From a virus (Duplodnaviria; Caudoviricetes), in the IMG/VR virus record IMGVR_UViG_3300044831_000011, positions 1-59,696 of that record: a stretch of DNA of 59,696 nucleotides; one strand, given 5' to 3'. A program made the translations under genes and the position numbers. Position 1 is the first letter of the stretch, and the number at the start of each line of letters is the position of its first letter. This document shows, in pieces, positions 210 to 37,241 of the stretch. Under the pieces are notes generated by a model. That model saw only the letters and a list, made by a program, of their open reading frames with translations. It ran no database searches and had not been told where the DNA came from.

Positions 210-2402
210 TCACTGCGCTGCAAATAATCCATCTGTGTTTACCATCTCTGCCGCCTTCAAATTGGCCGTGGCTTCTTTCCAGTACGATTCCTTGAGTTCA
301 CATCCTATGAATTGCCGCCCCATTTTCACTGCCTGATAGCCCTCAGAGCCGATGCCGGCATATGGAGAAAAAACCGTGTCTCCTTCATTCGTCCATAGCC
401 TGATGCCACGCTCGATCACTTCTAATTGCAGTGGGCAGATATGGCGTTCGTCTTCATCCTCGCGCGCGCCCTCTTTGTTGAGCGTGTTCGATGGGTTGAT
501 GTCCATCCACACTGGCGAGGCGTAACGCTGCCATACCTGCACCGGAAAAGATTCGTTTGTGTTCGTCACGCGCTCAAGGTTTTCTCCCGGCTTGCGCATT
601 GTCACCAGATAATCTGGTATCCCCTGCCGACTCATACACGCGTCTTTCTTGAGTTGTTTGTGTAGTAGGCCGAGGGCTTTTGTCCGCTGCATTGCCGTAA
701 CCGGGTCTTTCCAAATACAGACTTCAGAATGGAAGATGAATCCTACCTCTTTGAAAATACGGATAAGTTCGCCGCGAAAATCACTAATACCGATCACGCC
801 ATCCCGCTCTTTTGATGTAGGCAGGTTCATGCAATGAAAACTCATCAATCGCCCAGGCTTAAGGATGCGCAGCAATTCAGGCGCGAGAAAACGGAAGTGC
901 TCAAAGAACTCCGCATGGGTCCGGCAGTTGCCCATGTCCCTCTCACTCGCTGAATAGGTGTAAAGACTGGCAAATGGTGGAGAGAAAATATGGTAATGCA
1001 CTGAGTCTGTGCGCAGGTCTTTGATTTTCTCAACCGTATCCGCGCAATGCAGTGTCCATGTTCGGCCAGCGGACATGCGGGGAATGTAGATGTCGCCTTT
1101 TCTGCCGTGGCCGTGAATTTCTGCCTGATTCAAATCGTGCATGTTGTTGACCATCTCCTCTGCCATTTTCTTTGCGTCCGATTCTTTGCGTTTGATATTG
1201 GCGACTACTTCACCCTCACCTGTGCTGGTTACGATGTAGCAGTCAACCGGCGACTTCTGACCAAATCGCCAGCAGCGCCGAATCGCCTGATAGAACTGCT
1301 CATAAGAGTCCGAGAGGCCAAGAAAAACCACGTTGTGACACGATTGAAAGTTCAAACCAAAACCACAAATTGAAGGCTTGGACACCAGCACGCGAATATT
1401 TCCAGTGGCGAAATCCAGCATGGCCTTTTCCTTGAAGTCTGAAGAATCCGAACCGCAAACCTCAACCGCGCCCGGTATCAGCTTCGCCGCTGCATTCGAT
1501 TCACTATTAAGGTTTGTCCATATCAGCCATTGCTCGTCCGGCTTCGTGGCGGCGATTCTGGCGACCTCCGCAGCCCGTTCGTCGGTACTGCCTGACCGCG
1601 CTCTCTGGCGCTCTTGTAGCGTCACGGCAGGCAGGGCAAACAATGCTCCCTCTGGTGCGCGCTCAACTTCTACGGTGCGTTCGTGAATGGTCAACTCAGG
1701 CAGGATGAAACCGGCATCGTCATACCCCAAATCGGAGGGCTTGCGAATCATCACAGCCCAGGAGCAAACCCACTTCCAGAAATCTTTTTGAGCGTGGCCT
1801 TTGAGTCGCCATTTGGAAGTGTCCCCGCCATCATGCACAAAGAACGTGCTCAACATCTCAGTCCGCGACAGGTTCCCTAAAAACTCTGAGTGATTGCCAA
1901 GTTCCATGTAATCGTTTGGCGAGGGGGTTGCCGTGCATTCCAGCTTGTATTCTGTCGCATGGAAATCTTCAATGATGGCGTTTTTGAATTTACCTTCAAA
2001 CGATTTCAGGATGCTGGATTCATCCAGCACTATGCCGGCGTAATCCGATGGCCGGAAGTGGTCAAGCATCTCGTAATTGGCGATCGTGATTTGAGCGTCA
2101 ACCGACTGGCGCGCATAAACCACTTCAATCCCAAGTTTCTTACCTTCGCGCACGGTCTGCGGAGCTACAGCCAATGGAGCAAGTATCAGCACCTTGCCGG
2201 GTATCTGCCGCGCCCATTCAAGCTGCATAAAGCTCTTGCCCAGCCCACAGTCGGCAAAGATAGCGGCGCGCCCTTTCCGCAAGCACCAGCGAACAATATC
2301 CCGCTGCACATCAAACAGAATCGGATTTATTGGCCCAGGTTCAAGGCCACTGGTTACAACGTGAATCTGCTTTGAGTCTAGGAATTGCTGATATGTGCTC
2401 AT
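210..2402 (-). CDS. SNF2/DEAD-like helicase fused to an N4-C/N6-A DNA methyltransferase
   Basis: Helicase motifs DCGLGKS, LDESS, TATP, QAIRRCWRFGQ; C-terminal FSPPF catalytic and FSPYAGIGS SAM-binding motifs; start MSTYQQF overlaps the upstream stop (ATGA). Confidence 0.9.
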   Translation of the reverse strand: MSTYQQFLDSKQIHVVTSGLEPGPINPILFDVQRDIVRWCLRKGRAAIFADCGLGKSFMQLEWARQIPGKVLILAPLAVAPQTVREGKKLGIEVVYARQSVDAQITIANYEMLDHFRPSDYAGIVLDESSILKSFEGKFKNAIIEDFHATEYKLECTATPSPNDYMELGNHSEFLGNLSRTEMLSTFFVHDGGDTSKWRLKGHAQKDFWKWVCSWAVMIRKPSDLGYDDAGFILPELTIHERTVEVERAPEGALFALPAVTLQERQRARSGSTDERAAEVARIAATKPDEQWLIWTNLNSESNAAAKLIPGAVEVCGSDSSDFKEKAMLDFATGNIRVLVSKPSICGFGLNFQSCHNVVFLGLSDSYEQFYQAIRRCWRFGQKSPVDCYIVTSTGEGEVVANIKRKESDAKKMAEEMVNNMHDLNQAEIHGHGRKGDIYIPRMSAGRTWTLHCADTVEKIKDLRTDSVHYHIFSPPFASLYTYSASERDMGNCRTHAEFFEHFRFLAPELLRILKPGRLMSFHCMNLPTSKERDGVIGISDFRGELIRIFKEVGFIFHSEVCIWKDPVTAMQRTKALGLLHKQLKKDACMSRQGIPDYLVTMRKPGENLERVTNTNESFPVQVWQRYASPVWMDINPSNTLNKEGAREDEDERHICPLQLEVIERGIRLWTNEGDTVFSPYAGIGSEGYQAVKMGRQFIGCELKESYWKEATANLKAAEMVNTDGLFAAQ

Positions 2403-2695
2403 CTGCTCGATTTCTCCCGCCCTGTTTCCAGTACCTTCCCGCTTGTACTGCTGACCCACCAGCTACTTTTTCCGCAGGCCACATGCCACCACTGACTTCG
2501 CAAAAAGTAGGCCGCAACTTCACAATCAACCATGCTCACGCCCTTTTTCCGCAGAGCATGTTGAACTACTTCGTAACCTGTAATCATTGGCTGCAAACTG
2601 TCGCTCCAATCGTTGTTTGTCTCTGAAAATCCATACTTCCGCAACATCTTTACTGATGCTATCCATAGCGGCGTTTCTAGGTTTATGGGCCTCAA
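2399..2695 (-). CDS. Hypothetical protein
   Basis: Translationally coupled at both ends. Confidence 0.55.
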   Translation of the reverse strand: MRPINLETPLWIASVKMLRKYGFSETNNDWSDSLQPMITGYEVVQHALRKKGVSMVDCEVAAYFLRSQWWHVACGKSSWWVSSTSGKVLETGREKSSR

Positions 2696-12039: not shown

Positions 12040-13233
12040 TCATGCGGTTACACCCCTTCCATTTCTCCGCTGTGGAAATTCGGACTGAGGCTTCTTGCGA
12101 TCCGGGTCTATCAGGTCAAGCGCGGCGGCTTTTACCGTAGTCCGATGCTGGTCATAGTATCTGGTCATTTCATCTGAGACATGGCCAGCTACGGAACGAA
12201 CGGTTTCAATCGGCACCCCCGATTCAAGCATTTTGGTTATCGGCTGATTGCGGAAGTTTCGCCGGCTGATCCTGAAGGGAATGATTTTCAATTCCAGCGC
12301 CTTGGCTACCAGCTTGTTCCATTGGGCATTCGTCCAGGATGAGGACGCGGGACGCAACGGATCAAACAGGCCGCGCTTTACCCGGAACGGAAATACATAG
12401 TGGTGCGGTTGCGTTGATCCGCGCTTTGCCGCCCTTTCCAGCATGCGCTCAACCATCTTTTTGCCGCGTATATTTAGAGGGATGATACGAGGCCGATGTT
12501 CGTTTTTGGCTCCCAGCGGCACAGTGATTGTGGCAGGTTCGCCAGCAAGGTCAATGTCTGATAGCTGCATCAGGCGCAATTCAACGCCGTAAGCGGTCGT
12601 ATTGTTGGAAAGGGAAGCTTCCCAATAGGCACCCCACCAGCTTTGGTCACTCGCGGCCAACTCAAAAAAATCATCTTCCTGTTTGACGGTTAACACTCTG
12701 GGCTTGCCACGGCGCGGAACTTGCAGCGTTCGATAGTGTTCCGCAATCGGTTGCCATAGTCCGGCCTTCCGCATGATCTGAGAAAGGGTATTCAGGTCGT
12801 GGTTCACGTTGGCAGGACTGTACAGCTTTTTATTGATGCGCTGATATTCCTGAATGTGTCCGATGTGGATTTGATCTAGCCTCTCCGGCCATGGAAAGGA
12901 ATTGAGGCGCAGAATGTAATCGTCATAGCATTTGATCGTGCTTTCCGCTACGTATTCGCTATGTTGTTCTTTCCATTTTTCAGCCGCTTGTTTGAGTGGT
13001 AATTCCTTCAGGTCAGTAGCTTTTTCCACGATGGCCAGCCTTGCGCGTTCGGCGCTTACTTCAAATTCTGTTCTGAATGCCCCAAATCTTATCGCCTTAA
13101 TTTCGCTTTTACCAGACACAAAATCTTGGGTATTCAGCTCTGAAGGAACGCTAGCCATAGGTTTTCTTGCGTTTAAATTTACTGGCTCTTTCATAGGAAC
13201 TGCCCAGAGGGCAGAAGTGGATGAGTGCGTCAT
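12040..13233 (-). CDS. int: Tyrosine recombinase/integrase with atypical catalytic motifs
   Basis: Core-binding domain, KNEHRPRIIPL, RxxR box, GH-x8-Y (AGHVSDEMTRYY). Confidence 0.85.
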   Translation of the reverse strand: MTHSSTSALWAVPMKEPVNLNARKPMASVPSELNTQDFVSGKSEIKAIRFGAFRTEFEVSAERARLAIVEKATDLKELPLKQAAEKWKEQHSEYVAESTIKCYDDYILRLNSFPWPERLDQIHIGHIQEYQRINKKLYSPANVNHDLNTLSQIMRKAGLWQPIAEHYRTLQVPRRGKPRVLTVKQEDDFFELAASDQSWWGAYWEASLSNNTTAYGVELRLMQLSDIDLAGEPATITVPLGAKNEHRPRIIPLNIRGKKMVERMLERAAKRGSTQPHHYVFPFRVKRGLFDPLRPASSSWTNAQWNKLVAKALELKIIPFRISRRNFRNQPITKMLESGVPIETVRSVAGHVSDEMTRYYDQHRTTVKAAALDLIDPDRKKPQSEFPQRRNGRGVTA

Positions 13234-16022: not shown

Positions 16023-17489
16023 ATGCTCCCGAACTCACAAAACGGAATTAAGCCTCGCATTTCTGTCATCAGCGTTTGCTCTGGCATCGGTACTGATGCT
16101 GTAGCGTGGCAGCCGCTTGGCTGGAAGCATCTTTGCTTTGCCGAGATTGAGAAATTCCCCAGCGCGGTACTCGCGCATCACTGGCCGCATGTAATCAACC
16201 GTGGCGATTTCACAAAAATTGGAGATGAATACCGTGGAGCAGCAGACCTTCTGGTTGGCGGAACACCTTGCCAGTCTTTCAGTGTCGCCGGTCTCAGAGG
16301 CGGATTGGCAGATGATCGTGGCAACCTGGCCCTCGAATTTCTTAGGCTTGCTGACCGCACACGGCCCCGATGGGTGGTCTGGGAGAACGTCCCTGGCGTG
16401 TTGTCGAGCGATGGAGGACGGGACTTTGGTTCCATTCTCGGAGGGCTGGGGAAACTCGGGTACGGGTGGGCCTACAGAATCCTGGACGCTCAATACTTCG
16501 GAGTTCCACAGCGCCGCCGTCGCGTCTTCGTTGTCGGATGTCTTGGAGACTGGCGACGTGCCGCAGCGGTACTTTTTGAGCGCCACAGCCTGCAAGGGAA
16601 TCATCCGCCGAGCCGAGAAAAGGGGCAAGGATTTACCCATGAACTTGCGCCGGGCATTGGAGCAAGTGGCAGAGGGTTCGAGCGGGCAGGAGAAACACGC
16701 GGACAAGATCCAGTAGTAGCGGAGGAATTATGCCGACCATTTGCGATGGATGCAATGTTAGACCGCCATTTGAGCACAGATGCCACGGTGACCGATCATT
16801 TGTCGCCGGGGAGTCAACTGGATTGCAGTGCGAGTGCCAAGAGTGCAAAGAGCCAAGCCCGGAAGAACTCGCTGAGTTCGAAAAGTCGCTTAAATCCTGA
16901 GGTCTCCGGTGCCGTATCTTCCAAATGGGCCAAAGGAACCGGAGGGCCGTCAGGAGATGAATGCTACAACCTCGTAGCTCACCCACTCCGCGGCGATGGC
17001 TTCGATGCCTCAGAAGATGGCACTGGCAGAGGAACGCCGCTTATCGCAGCGGCACTGAAAGCTAATAGTGGCCGGAACAAAATTGAATCGCAATATCTCG
17101 CCATTCGCACAGCCCAGACCTCAGTCAATGGCCACGGAGTAGCAGAAGACGTTGCGCACACCTTGGACGGCGCACAAGGGCAGGCCGTCTGCTTCCACGA
17201 AAACCAGAGAGCAGAAGTCACGCTAAACGATACCGCAGGAAGCCTGAAGGTAGGCGGCGGTAAACCGGGACAGGGATACCCGGCAGTTCAAAGTGGCATG
17301 GCCGTCCGCAGACTAACTCCCCGAGAATGTGAGCGCCTCCAGGGACTACCCGATGACTTTACTTTAGTTCCCTTCAATGGAAAGACAGCTTCAGATGGTC
17401 CGCGATACAAAGCCATAGGCAACGGTATGGCAATGCCAGTCCTGCGCTGGATTGGTGAACGCATCGCCGCTGTAGAGGGTGCCCTGTGA
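16023..17489 (+). CDS. dcm: C5 cytosine DNA methyltransferase with modular variable region
   Basis: CSGIG, GGTPCQSFS, WENVPG, QRRRRVF, RRLTPRECERLQG, YKAIGN. Confidence 0.95.
   Translation: MLPNSQNGIKPRISVISVCSGIGTDAVAWQPLGWKHLCFAEIEKFPSAVLAHHWPHVINRGDFTKIGDEYRGAADLLVGGTPCQSFSVAGLRGGLADDRGNLALEFLRLADRTRPRWVVWENVPGVLSSDGGRDFGSILGGLGKLGYGWAYRILDAQYFGVPQRRRRVFVVGCLGDWRRAAAVLFERHSLQGNHPPSREKGQGFTHELAPGIGASGRGFERAGETRGQDPVVAEELCRPFAMDAMLDRHLSTDATVTDHLSPGSQLDCSASAKSAKSQARKNSLSSKSRLNPEVSGAVSSKWAKGTGGPSGDECYNLVAHPLRGDGFDASEDGTGRGTPLIAAALKANSGRNKIESQYLAIRTAQTSVNGHGVAEDVAHTLDGAQGQAVCFHENQRAEVTLNDTAGSLKVGGGKPGQGYPAVQSGMAVRRLTPRECERLQGLPDDFTLVPFNGKTASDGPRYKAIGNGMAMPVLRWIGERIAAVEGAL
16225..16716 (+). CDS. 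Nested out-of-frame gene in dcm (M.EcoHK31I beta-like arrangement)
   Basis: Stop-free +1 frame of about 164 aa ending in SLSDVLETGDVPQRYFLSATACKGIIRRAEKRGK. Confidence 0.65.
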   Translation: MNTVEQQTFWLAEHLASLSVSPVSEADWQMIVATWPSNFLGLLTAHGPDGWSGRTSLACCRAMEDGTLVPFSEGWGNSGTGGPTESWTLNTSEFHSAAVASSLSDVLETGDVPQRYFLSATACKGIIRRAEKRGKDLPMNLRRALEQVAEGSSGQEKHADKIQ

Positions 17490-18085
17490 AGCCGCGCACC
17501 GTACCAGCGCGCATGTCCGCTAAGCGCCGCGCCCAATTTGAGGCTGAGGGCCGGATTCCGTTTTCTACTATTCAGCGTAAACAAGTTTCCTGCGGCAGCA
17601 CGGAAGGACGTGCAGGGGAAAAACCACAGTACGGACTGACGCACTGGCGTGGATCGCGTAAAGCGGTTAAATCGGCTCAGCCGACGGCCATTACTTCGAT
17701 AGTTGAATCTAATGGTCGCATTCACGAACAACCGGAGGCAGCGCACGGAAACGGGTGCCCAAAGAGCCGGTATCAAGCCCGGTCCGCAGGGAAGCCCCGT
17801 AAGCCCATCCCATCCCGCAAGAAGCGCCCACGTCCTGTTTCTAAAACTCAGCGCCTTCGCCTGAAAGCCCTAAAACTCATCCGCGATAGATGGTGGGCAG
17901 AGGGTAAGCGTACCTGCGGGATCTGCGGGAAAGAAATCCTTGAGCGCGACGAGTACACGCTAGACCACATAGAGCCAGGATCGGCGAAGTCTGACGCTGA
18001 AGACAATCTTCAGCCGGCGCACTTCTATTGCAATGTGTTCTTAAAGGGTTCAAAGAGAAATTTCACATTGAAAGGGAAACCATGA
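17486..18085 (+). CDS. HNH endonuclease with basic N-terminus, interrupted in frame by a tRNA-like element
   Basis: CGICG...TLDHIEP...NLQPAHFYCN..KGS. Confidence 0.8.
   Translation: MKPRTVPARMSAKRRAQFEAEGRIPFSTIQRKQVSCGSTEGRAGEKPQYGLTHWRGSRKAVKSAQPTAITSIVESNGRIHEQPEAAHGNGCPKSRYQARSAGKPRKPIPSRKKRPRPVSKTQRLRLKALKLIRDRWWAEGKRTCGICGKEILERDEYTLDHIEPGSAKSDAEDNLQPAHFYCNVFLKGSKRNFTLKGKP
17589..17790 (+). ncRNA. tRNA-like RNA, copy A
   Basis: CCTGCGG-CA-GCAC[GGAAGGAC]GTGC ... A-GCCGG[TATCAAGC]CCGGT-CCGCAGG; interior of about 150 nt with several hairpins. Confidence 0.7.
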
Positions 18086-19892: not shown

Positions 19893-20342
19893 GTGAATGT
19901 GATCCCCATTTCGATTAGCGATGCGTGTGAGTTTGTCCGGCGCGTCCATAGGCATCACAAGCCTCCGCAGGGAGCTAAATTCGCCATTGCCATTGAGGAA
20001 GCAGGGCAGGTTTGCGGAGTTTCGATTGTGGGCAGGCCAGTATCTCGGCACTTGGATGATGGGTGGACGGCTGAAGTAACGCGGCTGGCCACAGATGGCA
20101 GAAAGAACGCTTGCTCAATGCTTTACTCCGCAAGTTGGCGAGCTGCCAGAGCGATGGGTTATCGGCGCATGGTGACTTACATCCTGCAATCTGAAACAGG
20201 AACTAGCTTAATTGCGGCGGGATGGAAGCTGATTTCAGAATGCGGCGGCGGATCGTGGAGCAGAACATCGCGGCCCAGAATCGACAAGGCACCATTGCAA
20301 AATAAAATCAGATTTGAAGTAAAGCAGGAGCGTGAACCATGA
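19893..20342 (+). CDS. XF1762-family / Mom-like GNAT-fold protein
   Basis: HRHH, GRPVSR.LDDG, EVTRL.TDG..NACS.LY, TYIL..E.G.SL.AAGW. Confidence 0.8.
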   Translation: MNVIPISISDACEFVRRVHRHHKPPQGAKFAIAIEEAGQVCGVSIVGRPVSRHLDDGWTAEVTRLATDGRKNACSMLYSASWRAARAMGYRRMVTYILQSETGTSLIAAGWKLISECGGGSWSRTSRPRIDKAPLQNKIRFEVKQEREP

Positions 20343-25380: not shown

Positions 25381-25475
25381 GGAGGGTTGGGACAGTCCGG
25401 TCTACTCCAGTGCATTGCTAACGCACCGAAGCCCCTAACAAGGCGACACAGGTTCAAATCCTGTACCCTCCGCCA
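25381..25475 (+). tRNA. tRNA-Ser(GCT)
   Basis: GGAGGGT/ACCCTCC acceptor, loop TTGCTAA, long variable arm, GGTTCAAATCC, G73, CCA; extended -10 TGCTATATT upstream. Confidence 0.9.
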
Positions 25476-25484
25476 AAGTTTTAT

Positions 25485-25573
25485 GGAAGGTTCCGCTAAA
25501 TGGTAGGCAACTAGTCCTGAAAACTAGGGTATGGTGATGAGCCATAGGGGTTCGATTCCTCCACCTTCCGCCA
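25485..25573 (+). tRNA. tRNA-Ser(TGA) with C33
   Basis: GGAAGGT/ACCTTCC acceptor, CTAGT-CCTGAAA-ACTAG, long variable arm, GGTTCGATTCC, G73, CCA. Confidence 0.85.
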
Positions 25574-28500: not shown

Positions 28501-29427
28501 TTAGCTGAAGGTCACTTGCAGATTGTTGATGGTGGCCTTGTAGGGCTTCGCGTCACCTGTAGCGTCAAGCTGCCACGCTGCATTGCAATACGGCTGGCCT
28601 TTTACATCCATCGTCACCGGATGGCTGAAGGCGACTGGCGTTGCAGTTCCATCCACAATCACCTGCACAAACTGCACGGTCTTTCCGTCACAGGTGGCTT
28701 GAATTTCAATGTGGATCATCTTCCCTGGTGTTGGCTTTGCCGTGACGCCCAGAGCCACCCAAGACTTCTTCACAAAATCAAAGCCGCGAAGCTGCCAGCT
28801 ACCAGCAGAGGGAAAGAGCTGAGGGCCAACATTGATTACCGTGCCGTCGGATTTGCGGATTTGGTAATCCAATTCACCCGCCTGCACGGAAGCCAGCGGA
28901 TCAAACATGTAATCGCAGGAGATGGAAAACTTAGTTGCCGTTTCCATGATCAACTTCTGCGCAGCCGTGAGCGTGCTGTAGAGCCTGCGGAGCAAGTAAA
29001 CGTTGTCGCTGCTCTTGTCGGCCAAAACCACCGGATGGAAGTCTGCCGTGGCCGGCGCTCCCGGCGTAACGGTGACTGTTCCGTGTGGGCCCGTCTTGGG
29101 TGAGCTTGCTGAACGCGCTTCATACCAAAGCTGTTCTGGCATCACAGCTTGGATCTCGGAAATCGTTACAATTCCGGCCGCTGCGGTCAGGTCGGCAACC
29201 TGCTTTTGCAGCGTGGTGATTTGCTGGCCTTGCTGGGTAATCGTCTGGTCTTTCGCGTCGTCAAGTTTGCCTGCTTCCGCAATATCGTTTTGGGCCGCTG
29301 TAAGTGCGCTATTCATGGGTTCTCCTGTGGATTTGACAATGATTTCTCCTACCCCTTTGCACTTGGAGCAGGTGTTCTTTCCGTAGCCGTGGCATCGGGG
29401 ACATTTGCGAACTTTCACTACTGGCAT
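28501..29427 (-). CDS. Zn-finger + coiled coil + beta-sandwich (lectin-like) protein
   Basis: CPRCHG...CSKCKG N-terminus; strong internal start at 29316; beta-rich C-terminal domain. Confidence 0.55.
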   Translation of the reverse strand: MPVVKVRKCPRCHGYGKNTCSKCKGVGEIIVKSTGEPMNSALTAAQNDIAEAGKLDDAKDQTITQQGQQITTLQKQVADLTAAAGIVTISEIQAVMPEQLWYEARSASSPKTGPHGTVTVTPGAPATADFHPVVLADKSSDNVYLLRRLYSTLTAAQKLIMETATKFSISCDYMFDPLASVQAGELDYQIRKSDGTVINVGPQLFPSAGSWQLRGFDFVKKSWVALGVTAKPTPGKMIHIEIQATCDGKTVQFVQVIVDGTATPVAFSHPVTMDVKGQPYCNAAWQLDATGDAKPYKATINNLQVTFS

Positions 29428-30354: not shown

Positions 30355-30495
30355 ATGGAGCGAATGACAAAAGCCGAAAAGACCGCGCTGCGTAAGGCGA
30401 CAAGCAAAGCCGGGAAAGCATCGGCAGCTAAACTGACTCCTGAACAGCGCAAAGAACGTGCCAGCAATGCTGCAAAAGCTCGCTGGAAACAATAA
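30355..30495 (+). CDS. Small basic protein (LTPEQR...A..AA.ARW family), probable DNA-binding regulator
   Basis: MERMTKAEKTALRKATSKAGKASAAKLTPEQRKERASNAAKARWKQ. Confidence 0.75.
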   Translation: MERMTKAEKTALRKATSKAGKASAAKLTPEQRKERASNAAKARWKQ

Positions 30496-30496
30496 C

Positions 30497-30571
30497 GGCC
30501 AGCCCGGAAGCTCTAACTTCCGAACCGGCCTAACCGTAACTCAGGGTGATAGGACACCCCAAATCATGGCT
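30497..30571 (+). ncRNA. Structured leader resembling the c4-a1b1-type phage RNA motif
   Basis: GGCC..CGGAAG-CTCTAA-CTTCCG..GGCC hairpin, CTAACCGTAAC, then a hairpin over the SD and ATCATGGCT; family assignment from memory. Confidence 0.45.
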
Positions 30572-31099
30572 AAGAAATTCTACCTCTTTTTGTTTATCTC
30601 ACTGGCCGCAATAAGCGGCTTTGCCCAAACCTTCAACAGCGCCGTTTCTTGTAACTCTCCGTTGCGCACGCTCGAAGATGGATCTAATCCACCCGCCGAT
30701 ACAGATGACGGAAGCGGCTCTCTTCAGGTGACGATCAATTGCACGGCGGTTTCAGTTGCCGGGGCATCTGGTTACATGAGCGGTTTTTTTTACTCCAACG
30801 TGGTCACTCTGCAGCACGACATTGATGTCTCTTTTGTGAACGGCTATGTGGTTAACGATGGCAAGCATTCCGGCTGGACGATCACGCTCGAAGTAACTCT
30901 TCCGTCAGCGCAGATGAAGCGGTTTAAAATTCCGTTCAACTCCACGCCGCCTACGAATAACGAATTGGTGATCCAGTGGCCCATTCTGCTGCACTTGCCA
31001 GCTGGAACCAAGCTGCAATCCTCGGTTTATGTATTTGCGGATAACGCTGCTACCTGCTCTGCCACCTGCTATGGATCGGCGCAATGGAGCTTGCAGTAA
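30566..31099 (+). CDS. Secreted beta-rich protein (moron)
   Basis: MAKKFYLFLFISLAAISGFA-Q signal peptide. Confidence 0.75.
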   Translation: MAKKFYLFLFISLAAISGFAQTFNSAVSCNSPLRTLEDGSNPPADTDDGSGSLQVTINCTAVSVAGASGYMSGFFYSNVVTLQHDIDVSFVNGYVVNDGKHSGWTITLEVTLPSAQMKRFKIPFNSTPPTNNELVIQWPILLHLPAGTKLQSSVYVFADNAATCSATCYGSAQWSLQ

Positions 31100-31325: not shown

Positions 31326-32609
31326 TCATCTACCCATAGCGATGAAGAAAAACGAATAAGACGTTCCAGCCACCGGCGTGCCAAGTATTCCAATAGTTGC
31401 GGCAGTAGCAGTTGTACCACTGACAAATGCGCCCGCTTGAGGGGAGTTTGCATCGGATCGGCAAACCACCACAATTGGATTGTTCGTCCATGTTCCATCT
31501 GCGAACGTGATCACAAAAGTTGCATTTGCTGATTGACCCGTTCCTGAAGAATTTATCGTTATAAATCCCGCGCTATCTGTTCCTATAACTGTTCCAACAG
31601 ATGCCGTAGTACCAAATCCCGTGAGCGATCCAACCTTAGCCGCTGTAAGTGCCGTTCCCCGCGTGGCCCCTAAGCGGTTGAAGGGAGTAAGAGGGCTTGA
31701 TGCTGCCGTTCCGCCAAGCGTTGAGGCCCCCGCTATAGCAGCATTGTTTACTACGGTTGGCGATGTGCCATTCAATGGAATCTGAAAGCGTATGCCTGAC
31801 TGATTATCAAAAATCGTGAACAGCGTGGCCGCTGATTGGAAAATGCTCGTTGTATTGAAACTTGGAATATTGGCGCTCGTTGCCACAATGTTGCCCAGAA
31901 CATCGACCTTGAAAAGCGTTACCCCTGCAAGGCTTTTGAAGTTGATGAAGTTCCCGGTGGGGCTGGAATCAGTCGCGCGCGATCCCGATAGAGCATCAGT
32001 TGAATTGGTGCCCTGATTGGCTATGAAATTGTTTGCCGTGGAACCACAAGTTGGAGTTGAGCCGCCGCTATTGATGACGGTTACGAAACTGTTCGAGCAG
32101 CTACCTGTACCCGCAAGATTTGGCGCGCCGATTGCATTTGAAAATGTCTTAACACCGCCGATTGTCTGATTCGAGAATGTGTCCACAAGATTATAAGCAG
32201 GCGTGAGCGAAGGCGTTGCGGGTACAGTCGTAATGTCCAACGTGCTGCCAATGGCGTACATCACAAAGCAGCTTCCTGGCTGAATAAAGTTTGGCTGGAC
32301 GCAGGCTTTGTACGAAGTCCCAGATGGGGTGGTAATTGATGTGTTCTGCACCAGCGTGCACGTAGAAACTCCGTCCAATGCTTTCAGCACGCCAGAGCCA
32401 TTGATGAGGCAATCCACTTCTGTTGGCGTGAATCGTGCCGTGCCGCTCACCTGCGTATCAATCCCCGGCTGAAGAGTGAAAGCCACTTGCCCGGATGTGA
32501 TGAGCGCACCCGTGAGATCACGAAACGTTCCAGTTACCGCCGTTGTGCTCTGAGCACTGGCTATGCCGGCCAACAAAAACAGAAATGCGAGTACGCGAAT
32601 AAGGCGCAT
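31326..32609 (-). CDS. Tail fibre/spike-like Gly/Ser/Thr-rich protein with a signal peptide
   Basis: MRLIRVLAFLFLLAGIASA-Q; NQTIGGVKTFS fibre motif; gp53-like C-terminus. Confidence 0.65.
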   Translation of the reverse strand: MRLIRVLAFLFLLAGIASAQSTTAVTGTFRDLTGALITSGQVAFTLQPGIDTQVSGTARFTPTEVDCLINGSGVLKALDGVSTCTLVQNTSITTPSGTSYKACVQPNFIQPGSCFVMYAIGSTLDITTVPATPSLTPAYNLVDTFSNQTIGGVKTFSNAIGAPNLAGTGSCSNSFVTVINSGGSTPTCGSTANNFIANQGTNSTDALSGSRATDSSPTGNFINFKSLAGVTLFKVDVLGNIVATSANIPSFNTTSIFQSAATLFTIFDNQSGIRFQIPLNGTSPTVVNNAAIAGASTLGGTAASSPLTPFNRLGATRGTALTAAKVGSLTGFGTTASVGTVIGTDSAGFITINSSGTGQSANATFVITFADGTWTNNPIVVVCRSDANSPQAGAFVSGTTATAATIGILGTPVAGTSYSFFFIAMGR

Positions 32610-32648
32610 GAATGAAGACTCCAAAATTGTGGGCTTTTTAAGTGAGGC

Positions 32649-33096: not shown

Positions 33097-35415
33097 TCAT
33101 TTCTTGCCAACTTCTTTAATGTTACCAAATTCTCCGCGTTCTGGTGCATTTCCCGCTGCTTTTCTGGCAGCTTTCATTTTGTACATGTTCTGCTCTGCCG
33201 TGGTCAAATCCCCGGCTGAGCCATAAGAGAAATCCGCTCCTGCATAATCGTGAGTCTGTCCGTCTGCATCCGTTACTCGAATTGTGGTATTTCTGAGGGT
33301 GTCGCGTGCATTTTCAAGTTGCTGATCTGAGGCATTGCGCGCCCCAAACTCATCCCCGCCGAAATGGTAGACCTCAATCCCTGCTTTCTTCAGCGCATCG
33401 CCTTTGGCCTTTAGAAGTGCATTGCCTGCTTCATGGCCAAACTTGTCATTGAAGGCCTTGAGTCCGTCTGCATCCGTCATAGTAACGGAAGGCGCTTGGC
33501 TGTTGGTCTGCGCAATGTCAAAGGCGCGGCGATTCGGCAATTCCGTTTGCGGACTCATGAAAACGGCGCGCTGCTTGTCTTCCGGCGGCATCTTTTCCAA
33601 TTCGGCGCGCAAGTCTGGGTATTGGATGCGCTGATCTGGAGCTTTCTGGGCTACATTTTGCATCAATCCCGGCCCCTTGGGTGCATCCGGGTTGACTCCC
33701 TTTGCCTGAAGGCTCTGGCGCAACAGGTCTTCCATGTTGGCTTCCGTGGCAATCTGGGGCTGTGGAACTGGCGCTTGTGGTTGCATCGGCTGGGCTGCTG
33801 GCGTGGCCTGTGCTGGCGACGGTGGCCCACCTTTACGACCCTTTGCTCTGGCCATGATGCCCGGTGATGTCTGAGGCTCCTCTGGTGGCAATACGGCCTG
33901 CCCTGAGGCATTTGCTTGCTCAATGGCGCTATTTAGTGTCTTACCGGCTTGTGCGTTCATTAAGCCGGGAGTCTTCGCGCCCGGTGCCTGCTGGTTATGT
34001 GCTTCCATCCATCCCTGAAGTTTGGCTTGCCCTTCTTCGTCGCCTGCCTGCCCTTCAAGTTCGTTCTGAGTTTTGGCCAGAAATTCGTGCTCTCGTATGC
34101 CATCCAAAAGGCTTGGCTTTTGAGCCGGAACGCCCTGAAAAAGTGACTGCGCAGAGTTCGTGGCCGTTGGTGCAACTTGATCTGTGGCTGGCGAGGTCAG
34201 GAACTGCACGCGGGGATTACCGTCTTTATCCAGCGTGAAACGCGGCGCCGCTGGCAACAATCCTTCTGGCGAATCAGGCGGAAGTATCTCGCCCGGTCCT
34301 AACTGGATTGCTCCGCTGGCCTTCTCGGGCAGGATCAGCCCTAAGCGTTGTGCGCGTGTGGTAGCTGCTACCGGTGGCGGCGTATACGGTACGGAACCGC
34401 TTGTATCCGCCGGCGGTGGCGTGACGATTGGGCCTGAGGCAAGCTGCTTTAGTGGCGATTGTGGCGGCTGCTCACCATTGAACTTAACAGGCGCGGCTGC
34501 ATCTGGATTTGTGCTGAAAAGCGGGGAGTTGCCCAGCTTAGGCGTGTTGTTGAATAAATCAAGTTGCGGGTCTGCCGTGGTCTTAGCAGCTTCAGCGTAA
34601 TCCGCGAATGATGGACGGCGAACCAAGCGGCCAACCATCGGGATATGGCTGATTAAATCATCTTTCGCCAGACTGCCAACGGCAGAGGCTTTTGCAGCAA
34701 TGTCTGGTGAGACCTTGCTCATCAGGCCCGGTATACCCTTGGCTGCTGCCATCCCGCCGCCAATATTTCCAAGGTCACTGGCGAATTGCTGCTGGGCTTC
34801 GTTCCCGCCTAATAGCTGCGTTGTTTTTTCAGCCGCTTTGCCGCCGAGATAGCCGCCGCCGATTGCACTCGCGGTTTCAAGTGGCGACATAACCGCTGAA
34901 ACTGGCAATGTCTTAGCGACAAGAGGCAGCGTCATTAGAGCGCCACTTTTGATGATCCTGTGGCCGCCTTGGGCAATGTTTCCGTCTGCGACATCGCCAA
35001 TTCCTTGCGACATTTCCCAGAGTGTAGGCTTGATTACCTGCCCGTATGCGGCCGCATCGCCTTCAGGATCGGGCTGGCCATTGTAAAACTGCTTTGCCCA
35101 TGAATCCATTGCTCCCGGCATGGTCGTAAGTTTCAGCTTGGTATACCACGGCAGCTTGTCATAGGCCGCATTCTTGACGGCTGCCTGAGGCGTGGTTTCC
35201 TCTCCATCGTCACCAATCATCGCCGGGGGTGCCGTGGGAACGGTAGGCGGTTGCTGATAGGTGACTTCTGGCTGCGGGGCCGCAGGTGCGGACAATGGGC
35301 GCACTACGGCCCCAGGTGGCAAACCCTGTACGTTCTGGGTCTGCGGAGCAAGCGGTTTGATGACCGCTCCCGGTGGCAATCCGGCGATTTGTGGCGTTAC
35401 AGGCTGAGTGCTCAT
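33097..35415 (-). CDS. Probable ejection/internal virion protein with C-terminal GGDEF domain
   Basis: Pro/Ala/Gln-rich body; TELPNRRAF, DADGLKAFNDKFGHEAGN, FGGDEF, AEQNMY..K. Confidence 0.85.
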   Translation of the reverse strand: MSTQPVTPQIAGLPPGAVIKPLAPQTQNVQGLPPGAVVRPLSAPAAPQPEVTYQQPPTVPTAPPAMIGDDGEETTPQAAVKNAAYDKLPWYTKLKLTTMPGAMDSWAKQFYNGQPDPEGDAAAYGQVIKPTLWEMSQGIGDVADGNIAQGGHRIIKSGALMTLPLVAKTLPVSAVMSPLETASAIGGGYLGGKAAEKTTQLLGGNEAQQQFASDLGNIGGGMAAAKGIPGLMSKVSPDIAAKASAVGSLAKDDLISHIPMVGRLVRRPSFADYAEAAKTTADPQLDLFNNTPKLGNSPLFSTNPDAAAPVKFNGEQPPQSPLKQLASGPIVTPPPADTSGSVPYTPPPVAATTRAQRLGLILPEKASGAIQLGPGEILPPDSPEGLLPAAPRFTLDKDGNPRVQFLTSPATDQVAPTATNSAQSLFQGVPAQKPSLLDGIREHEFLAKTQNELEGQAGDEEGQAKLQGWMEAHNQQAPGAKTPGLMNAQAGKTLNSAIEQANASGQAVLPPEEPQTSPGIMARAKGRKGGPPSPAQATPAAQPMQPQAPVPQPQIATEANMEDLLRQSLQAKGVNPDAPKGPGLMQNVAQKAPDQRIQYPDLRAELEKMPPEDKQRAVFMSPQTELPNRRAFDIAQTNSQAPSVTMTDADGLKAFNDKFGHEAGNALLKAKGDALKKAGIEVYHFGGDEFGARNASDQQLENARDTLRNTTIRVTDADGQTHDYAGADFSYGSAGDLTTAEQNMYKMKAARKAAGNAPERGEFGNIKEVGKK

Positions 35416-37241
35416 TTTCCTAAAGCAACATACTTCCCGTTAACGATATGGCCGATGAGAGTCTTATTGTCTGCGGCATATACTTCATCGCTTGCGCCCG
35501 GCGGTGGAGTCGCTGAGGATGGACTGTTCTGCGCTGCCGATCTGGATAAGCGTCCTTGTACTCCCTGCGTTGGCGCTGGCGCTTCATCCAATCCACCACC
35601 GGGCCCGGAACCTGCCACCTGATAGCCGTAAACTCGCTTTACGTCCCGCAGGTTGTCGTTTGAGTTCTTGATTTTACTGTTGGCAATCTTTGTTGCCGTG
35701 GCCGAAATATCCTGAAGGATTTCAGGCGCGAACTGCTGGCCAGTCGTCCAATTCAGTACCGCCCGGTAAGCGCGGTCTGGCAAGCTGCCCTGGTTCTTGA
35801 TGGCGTTCAATTCTGTTTCGTTGATCCGGTGGACTCCATCGGGAAGATCAAGCCCCAAGGCTTTGAAGGCGAGAGAGGTTTGATCGGTCGGAGATTTGCT
35901 GCTGGCCAGATCCTGCACAAGTCCAAGCTGGTTCTGGGCAGCGCGCATGTCGTTCAAATGTTTTAGCGCCTGCTCGCGGCCTGCGTTTACGGTCTTGTTT
36001 TCCTCTCCTATGTTGGCCGCCTGAATTGCGGCCGCAATCTGTTTCCCTTGACGGTCAGCAGCTATGCCAGCCACGCGAGATTCTTTGTCAACTTCTTCAT
36101 TTACGAGCTGACTATGAATTCCTGTGGCAGATTTTGCCAATGCCTGAGCATCTGGATCATTGGGCAACTGGTTTGGCGGGTAGAAATTGCCCTGCCGATC
36201 AGTCAGTCCCTCAAAAACTCCCTTTTCTCCAGTCTTTACCGTGAATTTCGGCCCGATTGGCTTTGTGTTCTGAATTACGCTGTCAATTTCCTCTGGTGCA
36301 ACGTTCATCCCGTTGTATTGGGCTGTGGTCAGAGCACGGCGGCGTAATTCATCCGGTGGAATCTTGCCAGCTTCCGCTTCTTGCTGAAGTTGCGCGATGA
36401 ACTGCGCTTTCCTCTGCTGGGGAGGGCCAAAGAGCTGAAGATTCTGATTCTCGATGCTGGTTTTCTGGATTCCTGCAACATCTTGGGCCTGTTTCAGGCG
36501 TTGATCTATGACGGCATTGTCGGCATTACGCTGGGCAACCGGCAAATTCTGGTTGTATTCGCGCAACGCTTCAACTTGGCGCATCAATCCCGGCGCTACT
36601 GTGGCCTGCCCGTGATCGAGTGAAGCCCCTACGCTATCCAGTGCGGCAAATAATCCAGTGAGCGCCAATTTCTTGCCCTGCGGAACATAAGGTGCATTCG
36701 CAACTGGCGCGTGTCCGCCCGGATAGGCGGCGAGAATTGATTCTGGGGTCAATTGCTGCGGTGGCGTGGCGGGCTGGCGAACTGCTGGCGCTCCGCCGGT
36801 AAGTGCATCCTCAAGGCTGGCTGGCGCTGGCACGTTCTTCATCAGCCCCGGCCCTTGCGTAGTGCTTGTGGGTGCAGCCTGAGGCGTAGGACTGCCGTAA
36901 AGCTGTGCTTCTGGGCTGCCTGATACGTCTGGGCTGAAAGGTGGAGTGCCATCTGATGACGGCTGAATTGCTGACTGCACCTTTGCCGCTACCACGCTGG
37001 GCATGGGAGTATTCGGCGGAATCGGCTGCGGAACTTTGGCCACGTTTACCGGGTCGGCGTGCCAGTCCAAGAATGTTTTAGGCACGGCACCGCCCAGAGG
37101 TACATTCGCCTGATCGCCCGGTGTCATCTGTGGAGTTTGCGGAGCTTCTACTTGGGCAATCTGGCTGATTGCGTCCGGGTCATCAAAAAGCGATGGCGGG
37201 AAAAGCGAATTTTTAAGTTGATTTTGCTGTGTGCCTGCCAT
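35412..37241 (-). CDS. Probable ejection/internal virion protein
   Basis: Pro/Ala/Gln-rich; position after tail genes in a podovirus-like layout. Confidence 0.6.
   Translation of the reverse strand: MAGTQQNQLKNSLFPPSLFDDPDAISQIAQVEAPQTPQMTPGDQANVPLGGAVPKTFLDWHADPVNVAKVPQPIPPNTPMPSVVAAKVQSAIQPSSDGTPPFSPDVSGSPEAQLYGSPTPQAAPTSTTQGPGLMKNVPAPASLEDALTGGAPAVRQPATPPQQLTPESILAAYPGGHAPVANAPYVPQGKKLALTGLFAALDSVGASLDHGQATVAPGLMRQVEALREYNQNLPVAQRNADNAVIDQRLKQAQDVAGIQKTSIENQNLQLFGPPQQRKAQFIAQLQQEAEAGKIPPDELRRRALTTAQYNGMNVAPEEIDSVIQNTKPIGPKFTVKTGEKGVFEGLTDRQGNFYPPNQLPNDPDAQALAKSATGIHSQLVNEEVDKESRVAGIAADRQGKQIAAAIQAANIGEENKTVNAGREQALKHLNDMRAAQNQLGLVQDLASSKSPTDQTSLAFKALGLDLPDGVHRINETELNAIKNQGSLPDRAYRAVLNWTTGQQFAPEILQDISATATKIANSKIKNSNDNLRDVKRVYGYQVAGSGPGGGLDEAPAPTQGVQGRLSRSAAQNSPSSATPPPGASDEVYAADNKTLIGHIVNGKYVALGK

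Follow-up and report, generated by a model that had tools for sequence, protein, structure and literature searches.

We analyzed a window of 59,696 bases (IMG/VR record IMGVR_UViG_3300044831_000011), which is one complete virus record with direct terminal repeats, and report here on one of its minus-strand genes, encoding a protein of 772 amino acids (aa). The C-terminus of this protein is a real GGDEF domain, far beyond chance, and sequence comparisons support its description as a catalytically intact-looking GGDEF module without an inhibitory site (I-site) or a sensor. The reading that we prefer, with a probability of roughly 0.55, is that the module would make cyclic dinucleotides with neither a sensor nor feedback inhibition, as the cargo of a protein of the ejection type.

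According to this reading, the protein would consist of an N-terminal α-helical anchor, a long low-complexity linker and a C-terminal cargo cyclase of ~180 aa, and the anchor and linker would assign it to the proteins that a temperate, podovirus-like phage keeps inside its particle or ejects. The module would act in the host cytoplasm, most likely entering it with the DNA. An extension specific to its clade would pair two modules, so that two nucleoside triphosphates (NTPs) are joined, and two purine NTPs would thereby be condensed constitutively to a cyclic dinucleotide, with no feedback control. The constitutive mode is suggested because the RxxD motif of the I-site is lost, a sensor is absent and the helical extension is predicted to pair the modules. 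The purpose may be early takeover of the host or counter-defence in nucleotide-signalling conflicts; this is suggested because relatives carry Acb1-like 2H phosphoesterases, ADP-ribosyltransferases and DarB-like modules.

The GGDEF domain and its phage clade

The gene and the parts of it that bear on the enzyme are as follows.

33097–35415, minus strand: whole gene with its stop codon, 772 aa, from the list of open reading frames (ORFs); last large gene of the late structural operon
33166–33549, minus strand: GGDEF (palm) domain proper, aa 623–750, from Pfam, a six-frame search, and PDB sequence and fold matches
33346–33360, minus strand: GGDEF motif, aa 686–690; the plus strand reads aaactcatccccgcc
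33472–33474, minus strand: Asp648, first Asp of DADGLK (D648–K653), aligned with the DxD Asp of solved cyclases
33421–33423, minus strand: Asn665 (codon AAT), at the position of the guanine-reading Asp, which is Ser348 in the Hypr enzyme GacA
33163–33174, minus strand: Lys748 and Arg751 in the last helix, aligned with the phosphate-binding Lys/Arg of the cyclase consensus
33559–33630, minus strand: clade-specific N-terminal extension of the module, aa 596–619, from conserved columns; predicted homodimer interface together with the helix at aa 627–639

Pfam assigned aa 623–750 to the GGDEF family (PF00990; E = 3.4e-8, 33.9 bits against a curated cut-off of 23.8), and a six-frame family search found GGDEF with 36.3 bits at 33166–33549. 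The PDB sequence matches obtained with phmmer were cyclases except for the weakest, and the best of them was 5euh (E = 4.3e-6). An AlphaFold2 (AF2) model of aa 578–772, built on 30 homologues, reached a mean predicted local distance difference test score (pLDDT) of 91.3 and a predicted template modelling (TM) score of 0.82. With this model Foldseek retrieved 92 PDB chains at E ≤ 1e-3, the top-listed ones all GGDEF cyclases and the best 4urg_B (E = 1.7e-8, TM 0.65 by target). Among viral models in BFVD, the module had eight matches at E ≤ 1e-3, including the GGDEF protein of Bordetella phage CN1 (TM 0.79 by target, root-mean-square deviation 2.7 Å).

The GGDEF hairpin, Asp648, the base-contacting Asn656, Lys748 and Arg751 are all intact in the 772-aa protein. 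We take Asp648 to be the metal-binding Asp of diguanylate cyclases, its role being assigned after PleD, and Lys748 and Arg751 presumably correspond to PleD K442 and R446, as we read the alignment. At the place that we take, again after PleD, to be that of the I-site (9 to 6 residues ahead of the first motif Gly), the protein reads KAGI and not RxxD, and no known sensor domain was recognized, because neither Pfam nor PHROG has a family that matches within the first 580 aa. Helix α1 is ~8 residues shorter than in the aligned cyclases. A first-pass annotation of this DNA, made from its letters, had described an intact GGDEF motif at the C-terminus, a metal-binding Asp in DADGLK, no RxxD inhibitory site and no sensor domain, and on all these points Pfam, AF2, Foldseek and the sequence alignments agree with it.

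Compared with the canonical cyclases (PleD, WspR, the Thermotoga maritima structures 4urg and 4urs, DosC and DgcZ), the module has the same fold, hairpin, metal Asp, Asn and Lys/Arg, and would share their need for two domains. It differs from them in having no sensor or receiver domain and no RxxD, an Asn in place of the Asp, a shorter α1 and only 20–26% identity to the solved cyclases; it is also phage-borne, with extra N-terminal helices that are predicted to form the dimer.

We searched 5.8 billion proteins with the module and found 31 relatives at 120–383 bits, after which the scores dropped to 52 bits or less, the range of ordinary sensor-linked cyclases. With the whole protein as query, 2,702 cluster representatives were matched at E ≤ 1e-3 (547 at E ≤ 1e-10 and 81 at E ≤ 1e-30), and among the best 150 of these 2,702, 140 contained the module and 10 matched in the N-terminal part only. 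On local re-scoring, members reached at least 90 bits and the other retrieved proteins at most 45, save one split match at 61. These scores indicate that the module belongs to a discrete, phage-specific GGDEF clade. Large proteins are frequent among its carriers: 83 of 154 family proteins have at least 1,000 aa and 40 at least 2,000 (the longest, 6,981 aa), and the module is C-terminal in only 51 of the 154. In IMG/VR, a scan with the single protein gave one relative (locus L002) and an alignment-based scan, which was needed for the rest, gave 153, from which 80 loci were kept; a motif search then placed the ORF carrying the module in 73 of these 81 loci, with a length of at least 1,500 aa in 64 and at least 3,000 aa in 29. 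When 23 giant proteins were compared with Pfam, its GGDEF model flagged the module in five at E ≤ 1e-5, and 12 had no Pfam match of any kind. The module is no one-off; it belongs to a large, biochemically untouched clade, most of which the Pfam GGDEF model misses at strict thresholds.

We aligned 218 distinct family domains, taken from the protein matches and the IMG/VR loci, to the family profile, and found that D648 (217), N656 (218), G687 (217), D688 (218), E689 (218), F690 (215), K748 (215) and R751 (207) were nearly invariant. The third motif residue was Asp in all 218 and never Glu, and RxxD occurred at the I-site place in a single domain. Three positions close to the nucleotide pocket were variable, 665 (see below) among them. 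The first motif residue took several forms (K 120, S 64, G 13, Q 12, H 7, R 1 and N 1), the window protein being among the few members with the canonical Gly, and position 661, which is His in the window protein, was Tyr in 127 domains and His in 81. Asn665 and the canonical Gly, the combination seen in the window protein, occurred together in 3 of the 218.

These counts bear on the possibility that the domain is a non-catalytic remnant, which would contribute structure or nucleotide binding to a virion protein. Degenerate GGDEF receptors are indeed well known in bacteria. However, such receptors keep RxxD and lose the active site, whereas the clade shows the reverse, with RxxD in 1 of 218 domains and the catalytic residues in at least 207; a degenerate domain of the receptor type is ruled out by the combination of a missing I-site with an intact active site, and we judge a remnant of any kind to be highly improbable.

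Counterparts in cultured phages form a set of free siphophage GGDEF proteins (Bordetella phages LK3, CN1 and FP1; Pseudomonas phages AN14, PAC6 and PC1), grouped in phrog_5594, which is also the best PHROG match of the 772-aa protein. ORF70 of LK3 has the same signature: a short α1, AGDEF, the C-terminal tail K..RE..G.R..RGE and an N-terminal helix. These proteins differ in being only ~155 aa long, in being encoded in the early region beside antirestriction and SprT-like genes, in having Asp as the base reader and in their identity of 26–29%.

The module begins ~30 residues ahead of the Pfam boundary, with an extension of the consensus ERRxDxxxRKxVxEMSPEEMRxxLLTS, which AF2 folds as two short helices (pLDDT 85–96). 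We predicted the homodimer from two copies of aa 595–772, with GTP and Mg included and with an alignment of our own. The interface score ipSAE was 0.62, 0.63 and 0.58, compared with 0.06 for the best control; at least 91% of the contacts agreed between runs, and the pLDDT of the partner was at least 89. The mark applied to ipSAE is reached by 20 of 30 one-chain pairs and by 1 of 23 solved single chains, a calibration that is only rough here, given our own alignment and the ligands. The interface consists mainly of aa 596–619 and 627–639 (residues 19–42 and 50–62 of the construct), with contacts near G687 and R693 of the hairpin. This prediction supports the idea that the clade extension pairs two modules, although the pass may in part be model memory, because cyclase dimers have already been solved. 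The pairing element, the missing I-site and the missing sensor together suggest a constitutive enzyme.

The same residues and the predicted dimer also bear on the possibility that the domain is an enzyme other than a cyclic-dinucleotide synthase, that is, an NTPase, a producer of linear pppNpN or longer oligonucleotides, or a nucleotidyltransferase with another acceptor. Such chemistry would fit the distance between the clade and the retrieved cellular cyclases (the scores of at most 45 bits, with the split match at 61), the Tyr that replaces His661 in 127 members and the α1 helix shortened by ~8 residues. It would also fit the Lys or Ser found at the first GGDEF Gly in 184 of the 218 members, a substitution that counts against the reading as a synthase. 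There are precedents as well: a YybT GGDEF domain with ATPase activity is cited in PMC7824862, and the products of mCpol and Cas10 are 2',3'-c-di-AMP or cyclic oligoadenylates (PMC12657218). However, the metal Asp, the Asp and Glu of the motif, the base-contacting Asn and the phosphate-binding Lys/Arg are all kept, the motif Glu has been proposed as the general base (PMC6456294) and the predicted dimer is symmetric. We consequently hold such other chemistry to be improbable and retain a cyclic-dinucleotide synthase as the preferred reading.

Position 665 and the likely product

The first-pass annotation had drawn attention to the sequence NDKFGHEAGN (N656–N665), in which Asn would replace the Asp that reads guanine, and had considered a non-standard product possible. 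In the phmmer alignments, GHEAGN matches GHQAGD of 5euh and GHLSGD of 4urs column for column, and Asn665 therefore stands at the canonical Asp position. A survey of this position in phage homologues, which the annotation had put forward as a check, gave D in 144, N in 69, T in 4 and S in 1 of the 218 domains. Asn was present in 60 of the 150 nearest representatives (the best 150 of 2,702) and in 10 of the 73 IMG/VR loci; in a small and retrieval-biased comparison set of 24 cellular domains, 23 had D and one had N. We then mapped the residue on a FastTree phylogeny of 242 domains and found that it changes state at least 42 times by parsimony, compared with a mean of 66 and a minimum of 54 changes in 200 label shuffles. 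The state of position 665 is thus somewhat clustered, yet it switches very often.

A change from D to N is a single transition (GAT/AAT). The survey indicates that Asn665 is a frequent allele of the clade and not a peculiarity of the window phage, and its switching can be read in two ways, as near-neutral or as product diversification. Because Asn is common and at least 42 flips are counted, the residue is weak evidence for a special product in one phage. The Asn is accordingly present as annotated, whereas its value as a singular mark of a non-standard product is not borne out.

The canonical Asp accepts two hydrogen bonds from guanine (PMC6456294). With Ser at this position, GacA uses ATP or GTP, leading to the synthesis of cyclic GMP-AMP (cGAMP), and once this Ser is changed to Asp the enzyme is purely a diguanylate cyclase (Hallberg et al. 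2019, PMC6456294), in keeping with the statement of the annotation that Ser in place of the canonical Asp yields cGAMP. The Hypr enzymes, which make 3',3'-cGAMP (Geobacter GacA, Bdellovibrio Bd0367), share with the clade a change at the base-reading position and the Asp at the third motif position. This third Asp is required of non-Asp readers by the 'Goldilocks' model, and the D:E split at the position is 57:43 among Asp-type enzymes, whereas the Ser/Thr-type (Hypr) enzymes are exclusively GGDEF (PMC6456294). The window domain differs from the Hypr enzymes in having Asn and not Ser or Thr, in keeping Arg629 and in lacking a receiver domain. Arg629, the first Arg of an NRR motif, was equated with the cross-dimer residue (Tyr304 in GacA; Tyr, Ser, Ala or Gln in Hypr enzymes) by counting back 44 residues on the 4urs alignment, which gives the assignment moderate certainty; the position is R in 141 and K in 29 of the 218 domains. 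Membership in the Hypr group is ruled out by the Asn and by the cross-dimer Arg, which is apparently kept.

A further comparison is provided by OptS of the Panoptes system, a minimal CRISPR polymerase (mCpol), and by the palm of Cas10, which have a homologous fold and make cyclic di- or oligonucleotides in phage–host conflict. These proteins belong to host defence and nearly lack the GGDEF motif, whereas the window domain is a true GGDEF domain and phage-encoded. In OptS and the mCpol enzymes, a single Ser/Asn change at another base-contact position shifts the use of A and G, with Ser favouring adenine and Asn guanine (PMC12657218).

Since the residue is Asn and not Ser or Thr, Arg629 is kept and Asn favours guanine in mCpol, cyclic di-GMP (c-di-GMP) would be the single most likely sole or major product of the module, with about an even chance. 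That the Asn variant accepts ATP too, giving an A-containing product (cGAMP or c-di-AMP), is a tentative suggestion with about one chance in three, and what remains after this half and this third would fall to other products. The natural D, N, T and S variants and the small free relatives in cultivable Pseudomonas and Bordetella phages mean that the nature of the product can be tested directly.

Proposed delivery with the phage DNA and possible nucleotide conflict

The following features bear on the placement of the protein in the virion.

35412–37241, minus strand: upstream gene of 609 aa, with a composition like that of the 772-aa protein and two further PG[LI]M motifs
35293–35382, minus strand: tandem N-terminal peptide GLPPGAV[IV][KR]PL, two copies, aa 12–22 and 31–41, from reading of the sequence
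34606–35238, minus strand: conserved N-terminal core, aa 60–270, shared with proteins without the GGDEF module
33661–34729, minus strand: linker rich in Ala, Pro, Gly and Gln, aa 229–585, from composition, with four PG[LI]M motifs
12040–13233: integrase

The minus strand carries, in this order, the small terminase (TerS), the large terminase (TerL), the portal protein and the major head protein (Pfam and PHROG matches), a weak adaptor match, a weak internal-virion match, the 609-aa protein and the 772-aa protein. Several assignments in this order are weak, and the lysozyme gene lies beyond the 772-aa gene. Outside the structural set, the window encodes the lysozyme, the integrase, an ERF recombinase, a primase-helicase and methylases. 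Because the terminase, portal and head genes occur together with this lysozyme, integrase, recombinase and primase-helicase set, the phage is a temperate, tailed one. The position of the 772-aa gene, past the head genes and the presumed adaptor and tail genes and ahead of the lysozyme gene, corresponds to the internal or ejection slot of podoviruses, which lies between the adaptor and tail genes and the fibre and lysis genes. It is the last large gene of the late structural operon, and there is a 4-nt overlap between its ATG and the stop codon of the preceding 609-aa gene; the first-pass annotation had called it the last gene of an ejection-like cluster. The 609-aa protein, for which no Pfam or PHROG family match was found, is likely to be its partner in the same cluster. 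In a promoter and terminator scan around the 772-aa gene, the counts were at chance level.

Full-length homologues of equal architecture (P0002 and P0009–P0014) are 54–97% identical to the protein in the module, and because the architecture recurs in them, an ORF-fusion artefact is ruled out. The conserved core is predicted to be all-α; its helices form long hairpins, and a single Gly-rich stretch is moderately hydrophobic (maximum hydropathy of 1.44, at aa 158–176). Among the 150 matches listed, P0058, P0059, P0070, P0128, P0130, P0166 and P0178 match in the core only. The recurrence of the core before other C-termini fits a constant anchor with exchangeable cargo, and we take the core to be the putative anchor part of the 772-aa protein. 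In P0058 and P0166 the GGDEF module is replaced by a common unannotated C-terminal module (~80 aa, Gly/Ser/Thr-rich and β-like).

The PG[LI]M motifs of the linker begin at aa 229, 483, 518 and 582, the last of them 10 aa ahead of the cyclase module. Four copies were reached in 0 of 20,000 shuffles of the protein, and elsewhere in the window the motif occurs twice in the 609-aa protein and in one probably spurious ORF (17291–17869, minus strand). Eight of the 154 family proteins, each closely related to the 772-aa protein, have the motif 5–12 aa ahead of the module, and it may be a cleavage or docking site between modules. In the core homologue P0166, RGITQ is repeated five times in linker regions in a similar manner, and it may be common among such proteins for the linker to repeat a motif particular to the lineage. 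Other repeats are also found at the starts of homologues (N-termini of P0003–P0032), for example IDLSxGxVPK twice, DPWAVVS twice and NPFAA three times. The duplicated N-terminal peptides could form a common N-terminal signal; a role of the tandem peptide in packaging or targeting is only an idea.

The evidence for delivery is positional in the window and stronger from the relatives. We scanned 12 giant ORFs bearing the GGDEF module. In four of them the module is immediately followed by the C-terminal portion of phrog_21 ('portal protein'), and three contain families annotated as minor head protein, virion structural protein and DarB-like antirestriction. A virion or packaging module was thus present in 7 of the 12 relatives scanned, whereas none was recognized by Pfam or PHROG in the 772-aa protein, which has one recognizable enzymatic domain on an uncharacterized anchor where its relatives are multi-domain. 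Locus L007 shows the podovirus order: a tail protein (phrog_376), an internal virion protein (phrog_418), a 726-aa protein and then a GGDEF-bearing protein of 2,093 aa. Among 57 flanking ORFs from 16 loci, 14 had PHROG matches at E ≤ 1e-5 (10 to tail, head or packaging families, two to 'other' and two to families of no known function).

Phages are known to eject enzyme-bearing proteins, such as the transglycosylase gp16 of T7, the virion RNA polymerase of N4 and DarB of P1. The proposed principle is the same, in that an enzyme would enter the cell with the DNA, and DarB-like modules share polypeptides with the clade; these proteins differ from the 772-aa protein in that they have no sequence or fold likeness to its anchor. 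In the giant chains, Pfam finds ART-PolyVal, ddrB-ParB, AAA_34/Helicase_C_4, methyltransferase and 2H phosphoesterase domains, and the giant module-bearing proteins correspond to the 'polyvalent proteins' described by Iyer et al. 2017 (PMC5512222). Such proteins, encoded by phages or conjugative elements, combine 2 to 15 unrelated effector domains in one chain; in the giant phage forms GGDEF occurs beside ART-PolyVal, ddrB-ParB, 2H, SNF2-type ATPase and methylase domains. That paper noted GGDEF domains in some polyvalent proteins, as the first-pass annotation had stated, and predicted both delivery on invasion and action on nucleotide signals. The window protein is a small form of this kind, with an anchor and one cargo and no MuF or portal module.

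Phage polyvalent or virion proteins with a GGDEF domain are therefore a known kind, described computationally in 2017 (PMC5512222). The accessible text of that paper calls GGDEF 'not very widespread' and contains no residue analysis, whereas the clade described here has hundreds of representatives and a signature of its own (xGDEF with Lys or Ser, Tyr/His at 661, D/N switching, no I-site and the pairing extension); the supplementary tables of the paper may list some of its members. The window protein is a small member of this known kind, and it belongs to a large, distinct clade in which position 665 toggles between Asp and Asn. Besides a 2020 eLife paper in which the terms searched for occur, the literature that we found consists of this 2017 computational note, Bordetella and Yuavirus genome annotations and the Panoptes papers; no biochemical or virion study of a phage GGDEF was found, most subscription journals being outside the coverage. 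The observation made in the first-pass annotation is confirmed, and its interpretation is partly supported.

Several points weigh against an ejected synthase. The SU10-type adaptor match is below its cut-off (23.9 bits against 27), which affects both the tail type and the notion of an ejection cluster; the 649-aa protein has only a weak match to an 'internal virion protein' (phrog_511, E = 4.9e-4) and none in a tblastn search against cultured phages; and the major head protein is 22–25% identical to actinophage proteins, which places the phage far from cultured ones. The N-terminal AF2 model is only moderately confident (pLDDT 68.6) and had no BFVD fold match at E ≤ 1e-3; the families without a match to the first 580 aa include the ejection, MuF and portal families, the PHROG search of this part and of 12 neighbouring proteins having been run at E up to 0.5; and a likeness to P22 gp16, which scored 0.89 in a protein atlas, lay under the bar of the tool and was rejected. 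Searching the PDB by sequence with the portal protein and the 649-aa and 462-aa proteins was uninformative on ejection-protein likeness. The cultured relatives in Bordetella phage LK3 and Pseudomonas phage PC1 are free early-region proteins and not virion proteins, and the dimer prediction may owe part of its pass to memory. Finally, catalysis, dimer-dependent activity, packaging or ejection, the product and the cellular effect are all steps that we infer; the data themselves show what the domain is and how it folds, which residues are conserved, how the clade is delimited, and in which gene surroundings and protein architectures the module occurs. The term 'ejection protein' used in the first-pass annotation thus fits the gene order and the relatives, whereas a likeness to a known ejection protein was not found in PHROG, Pfam or BFVD; the delivery with the DNA and the pilus shut-off or exclusion that the annotation had proposed are conjectural. 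We consider it probable that the protein is packaged in the virion, and set this no higher because the anchor matches nothing and the cultured relatives carry a free early gene.

The protein may instead be made late or from the prophage and act in the producing cell, where raised c-di-GMP would affect biofilm, pili, motility and receptor display, resulting in lysogenic conversion or superinfection exclusion. The phage is temperate, with an integrase; the clade occurs as a free early-region gene in cultured relatives; and the N-terminal part matches no known virion protein. Moreover, LK3 lysogens of Bordetella bronchiseptica form excess biofilm, which the authors link to the phage GGDEF without a test of the gene (PMC8471281). 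This correlative case is the one precedent for raised c-di-GMP altering the host surface, which would be the more conventional reading. However, an anchor and linker of 590 aa are joined to the domain in one protein, whose gene lies in a late structural operon and is translationally coupled to the preceding gene; relatives fuse the module to portal-type, minor-head and DarB-like parts, with tail, internal-virion and terminase genes adjoining; and no promoter-like signal above chance was found ahead of the gene, in a scan that is weak either way. We therefore regard action in the producing cell as unlikely, and continue with delivery at entry as the preferred reading.

Much of bacterial signalling, and several antiphage systems as well, run on cyclic dinucleotides. 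Phages have known means of destroying or sequestering such molecules, and a maker delivered at entry, if true, would be the missing opposite move. Of 259 module-bearing sequences, which were not de-duplicated, 27 have a 2H phosphoesterase within the polypeptide that carries the module; in 17 it immediately precedes the module, with a gap of –3 to 36 aa. Pfam classes the 2H domain as 2_5_RNA_ligase2 or LigT; P0080 has an additional match to Acb1, with a score that equals the cut-off. ART-PolyVal and ddrB-ParB domains were found in other module-bearing proteins. The recurrent tandem of a breaker and a maker points to a nucleotide-signal conflict. However, the window phage has no 2H, Acb1 or sponge gene by Pfam, and the only match of its 39 small ORFs in Pfam was a weak one to Mom; the conflict idea is therefore weaker for the window phage itself. 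The tandem of 2H and GGDEF was seen at loci L010, L011, L014, L021 and L023 and in proteins P0078, P0079, P0080, P0090, P0104, P0107, P0108, P0113, P0117 and P0150.

In the Panoptes system, hosts guard a decoy pool of cyclic dinucleotides, and Acb2 or over-expressed Acb1 triggers the system; a phage answer is still awaited, and the authors expect an 'anti-anti-anti-defence' (PMC12657218). The module might conceivably be a 'signal forger', an injected, always-on and self-pairing cyclase whose position 665 switches in an arms race and yields varied dinucleotides, the Asn form making cGAMP or c-di-AMP. Together with the fused 2H domains, such an enzyme would erase the immune nucleotides of the host and supply a substitute, which would keep decoy-guarded systems of the Panoptes type silent or jam the effector receptors. 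We think this elaboration improbable; if true, it would supply the anti-anti-anti-defence just mentioned.

Other genes of the window

The host was sought by a contig scan, which gave one weak match (35% identity over 75 aa) in a metagenome-assembled genome of Bryobacteraceae, and none of 401 genomes of the phylum of Bryobacteraceae matched at E ≤ 1e-15.

Two ORFs just downstream of the cyclase gene, at 31326–32624 (minus strand) and 30458–31099 (plus strand), have signal-peptide-like hydrophobic starts followed by AQ (LAFLFLLAGIASAQ; LFLFISLAAISGFAQ) and no family match; they may be secreted or surface proteins (morons) and not tail fibres. A 308-aa ORF at 28501–29427 (minus strand) combines an N-terminal zinc-ribbon-like motif, CxxC...CxxCxGxG, with a β-rich C-terminal part, and its matches to DnaJ_CXXCXGXG and to zinc fingers are weak and under the cut-offs; it could be a receptor-binding or tail protein. 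Two adjoining tRNA-Ser genes with the anticodons GCT and TGA lie at 25381–25573 (plus strand), between the lysis and early regions.

At 210–2459 (minus strand) a 749-aa protein is encoded in which Pfam recognizes a helicase C-terminal domain fused to an N6/N4 DNA methylase. This pair recalls DarB-type antirestriction proteins, which elsewhere share polypeptides with the GGDEF clade. The weak Mom family match lies at 19893–20342 (plus strand; 21.4 bits against a cut-off of 27.1), with a C-5 cytosine methylase and an HNH endonuclease nearby, and the phage appears to invest heavily in DNA modification.

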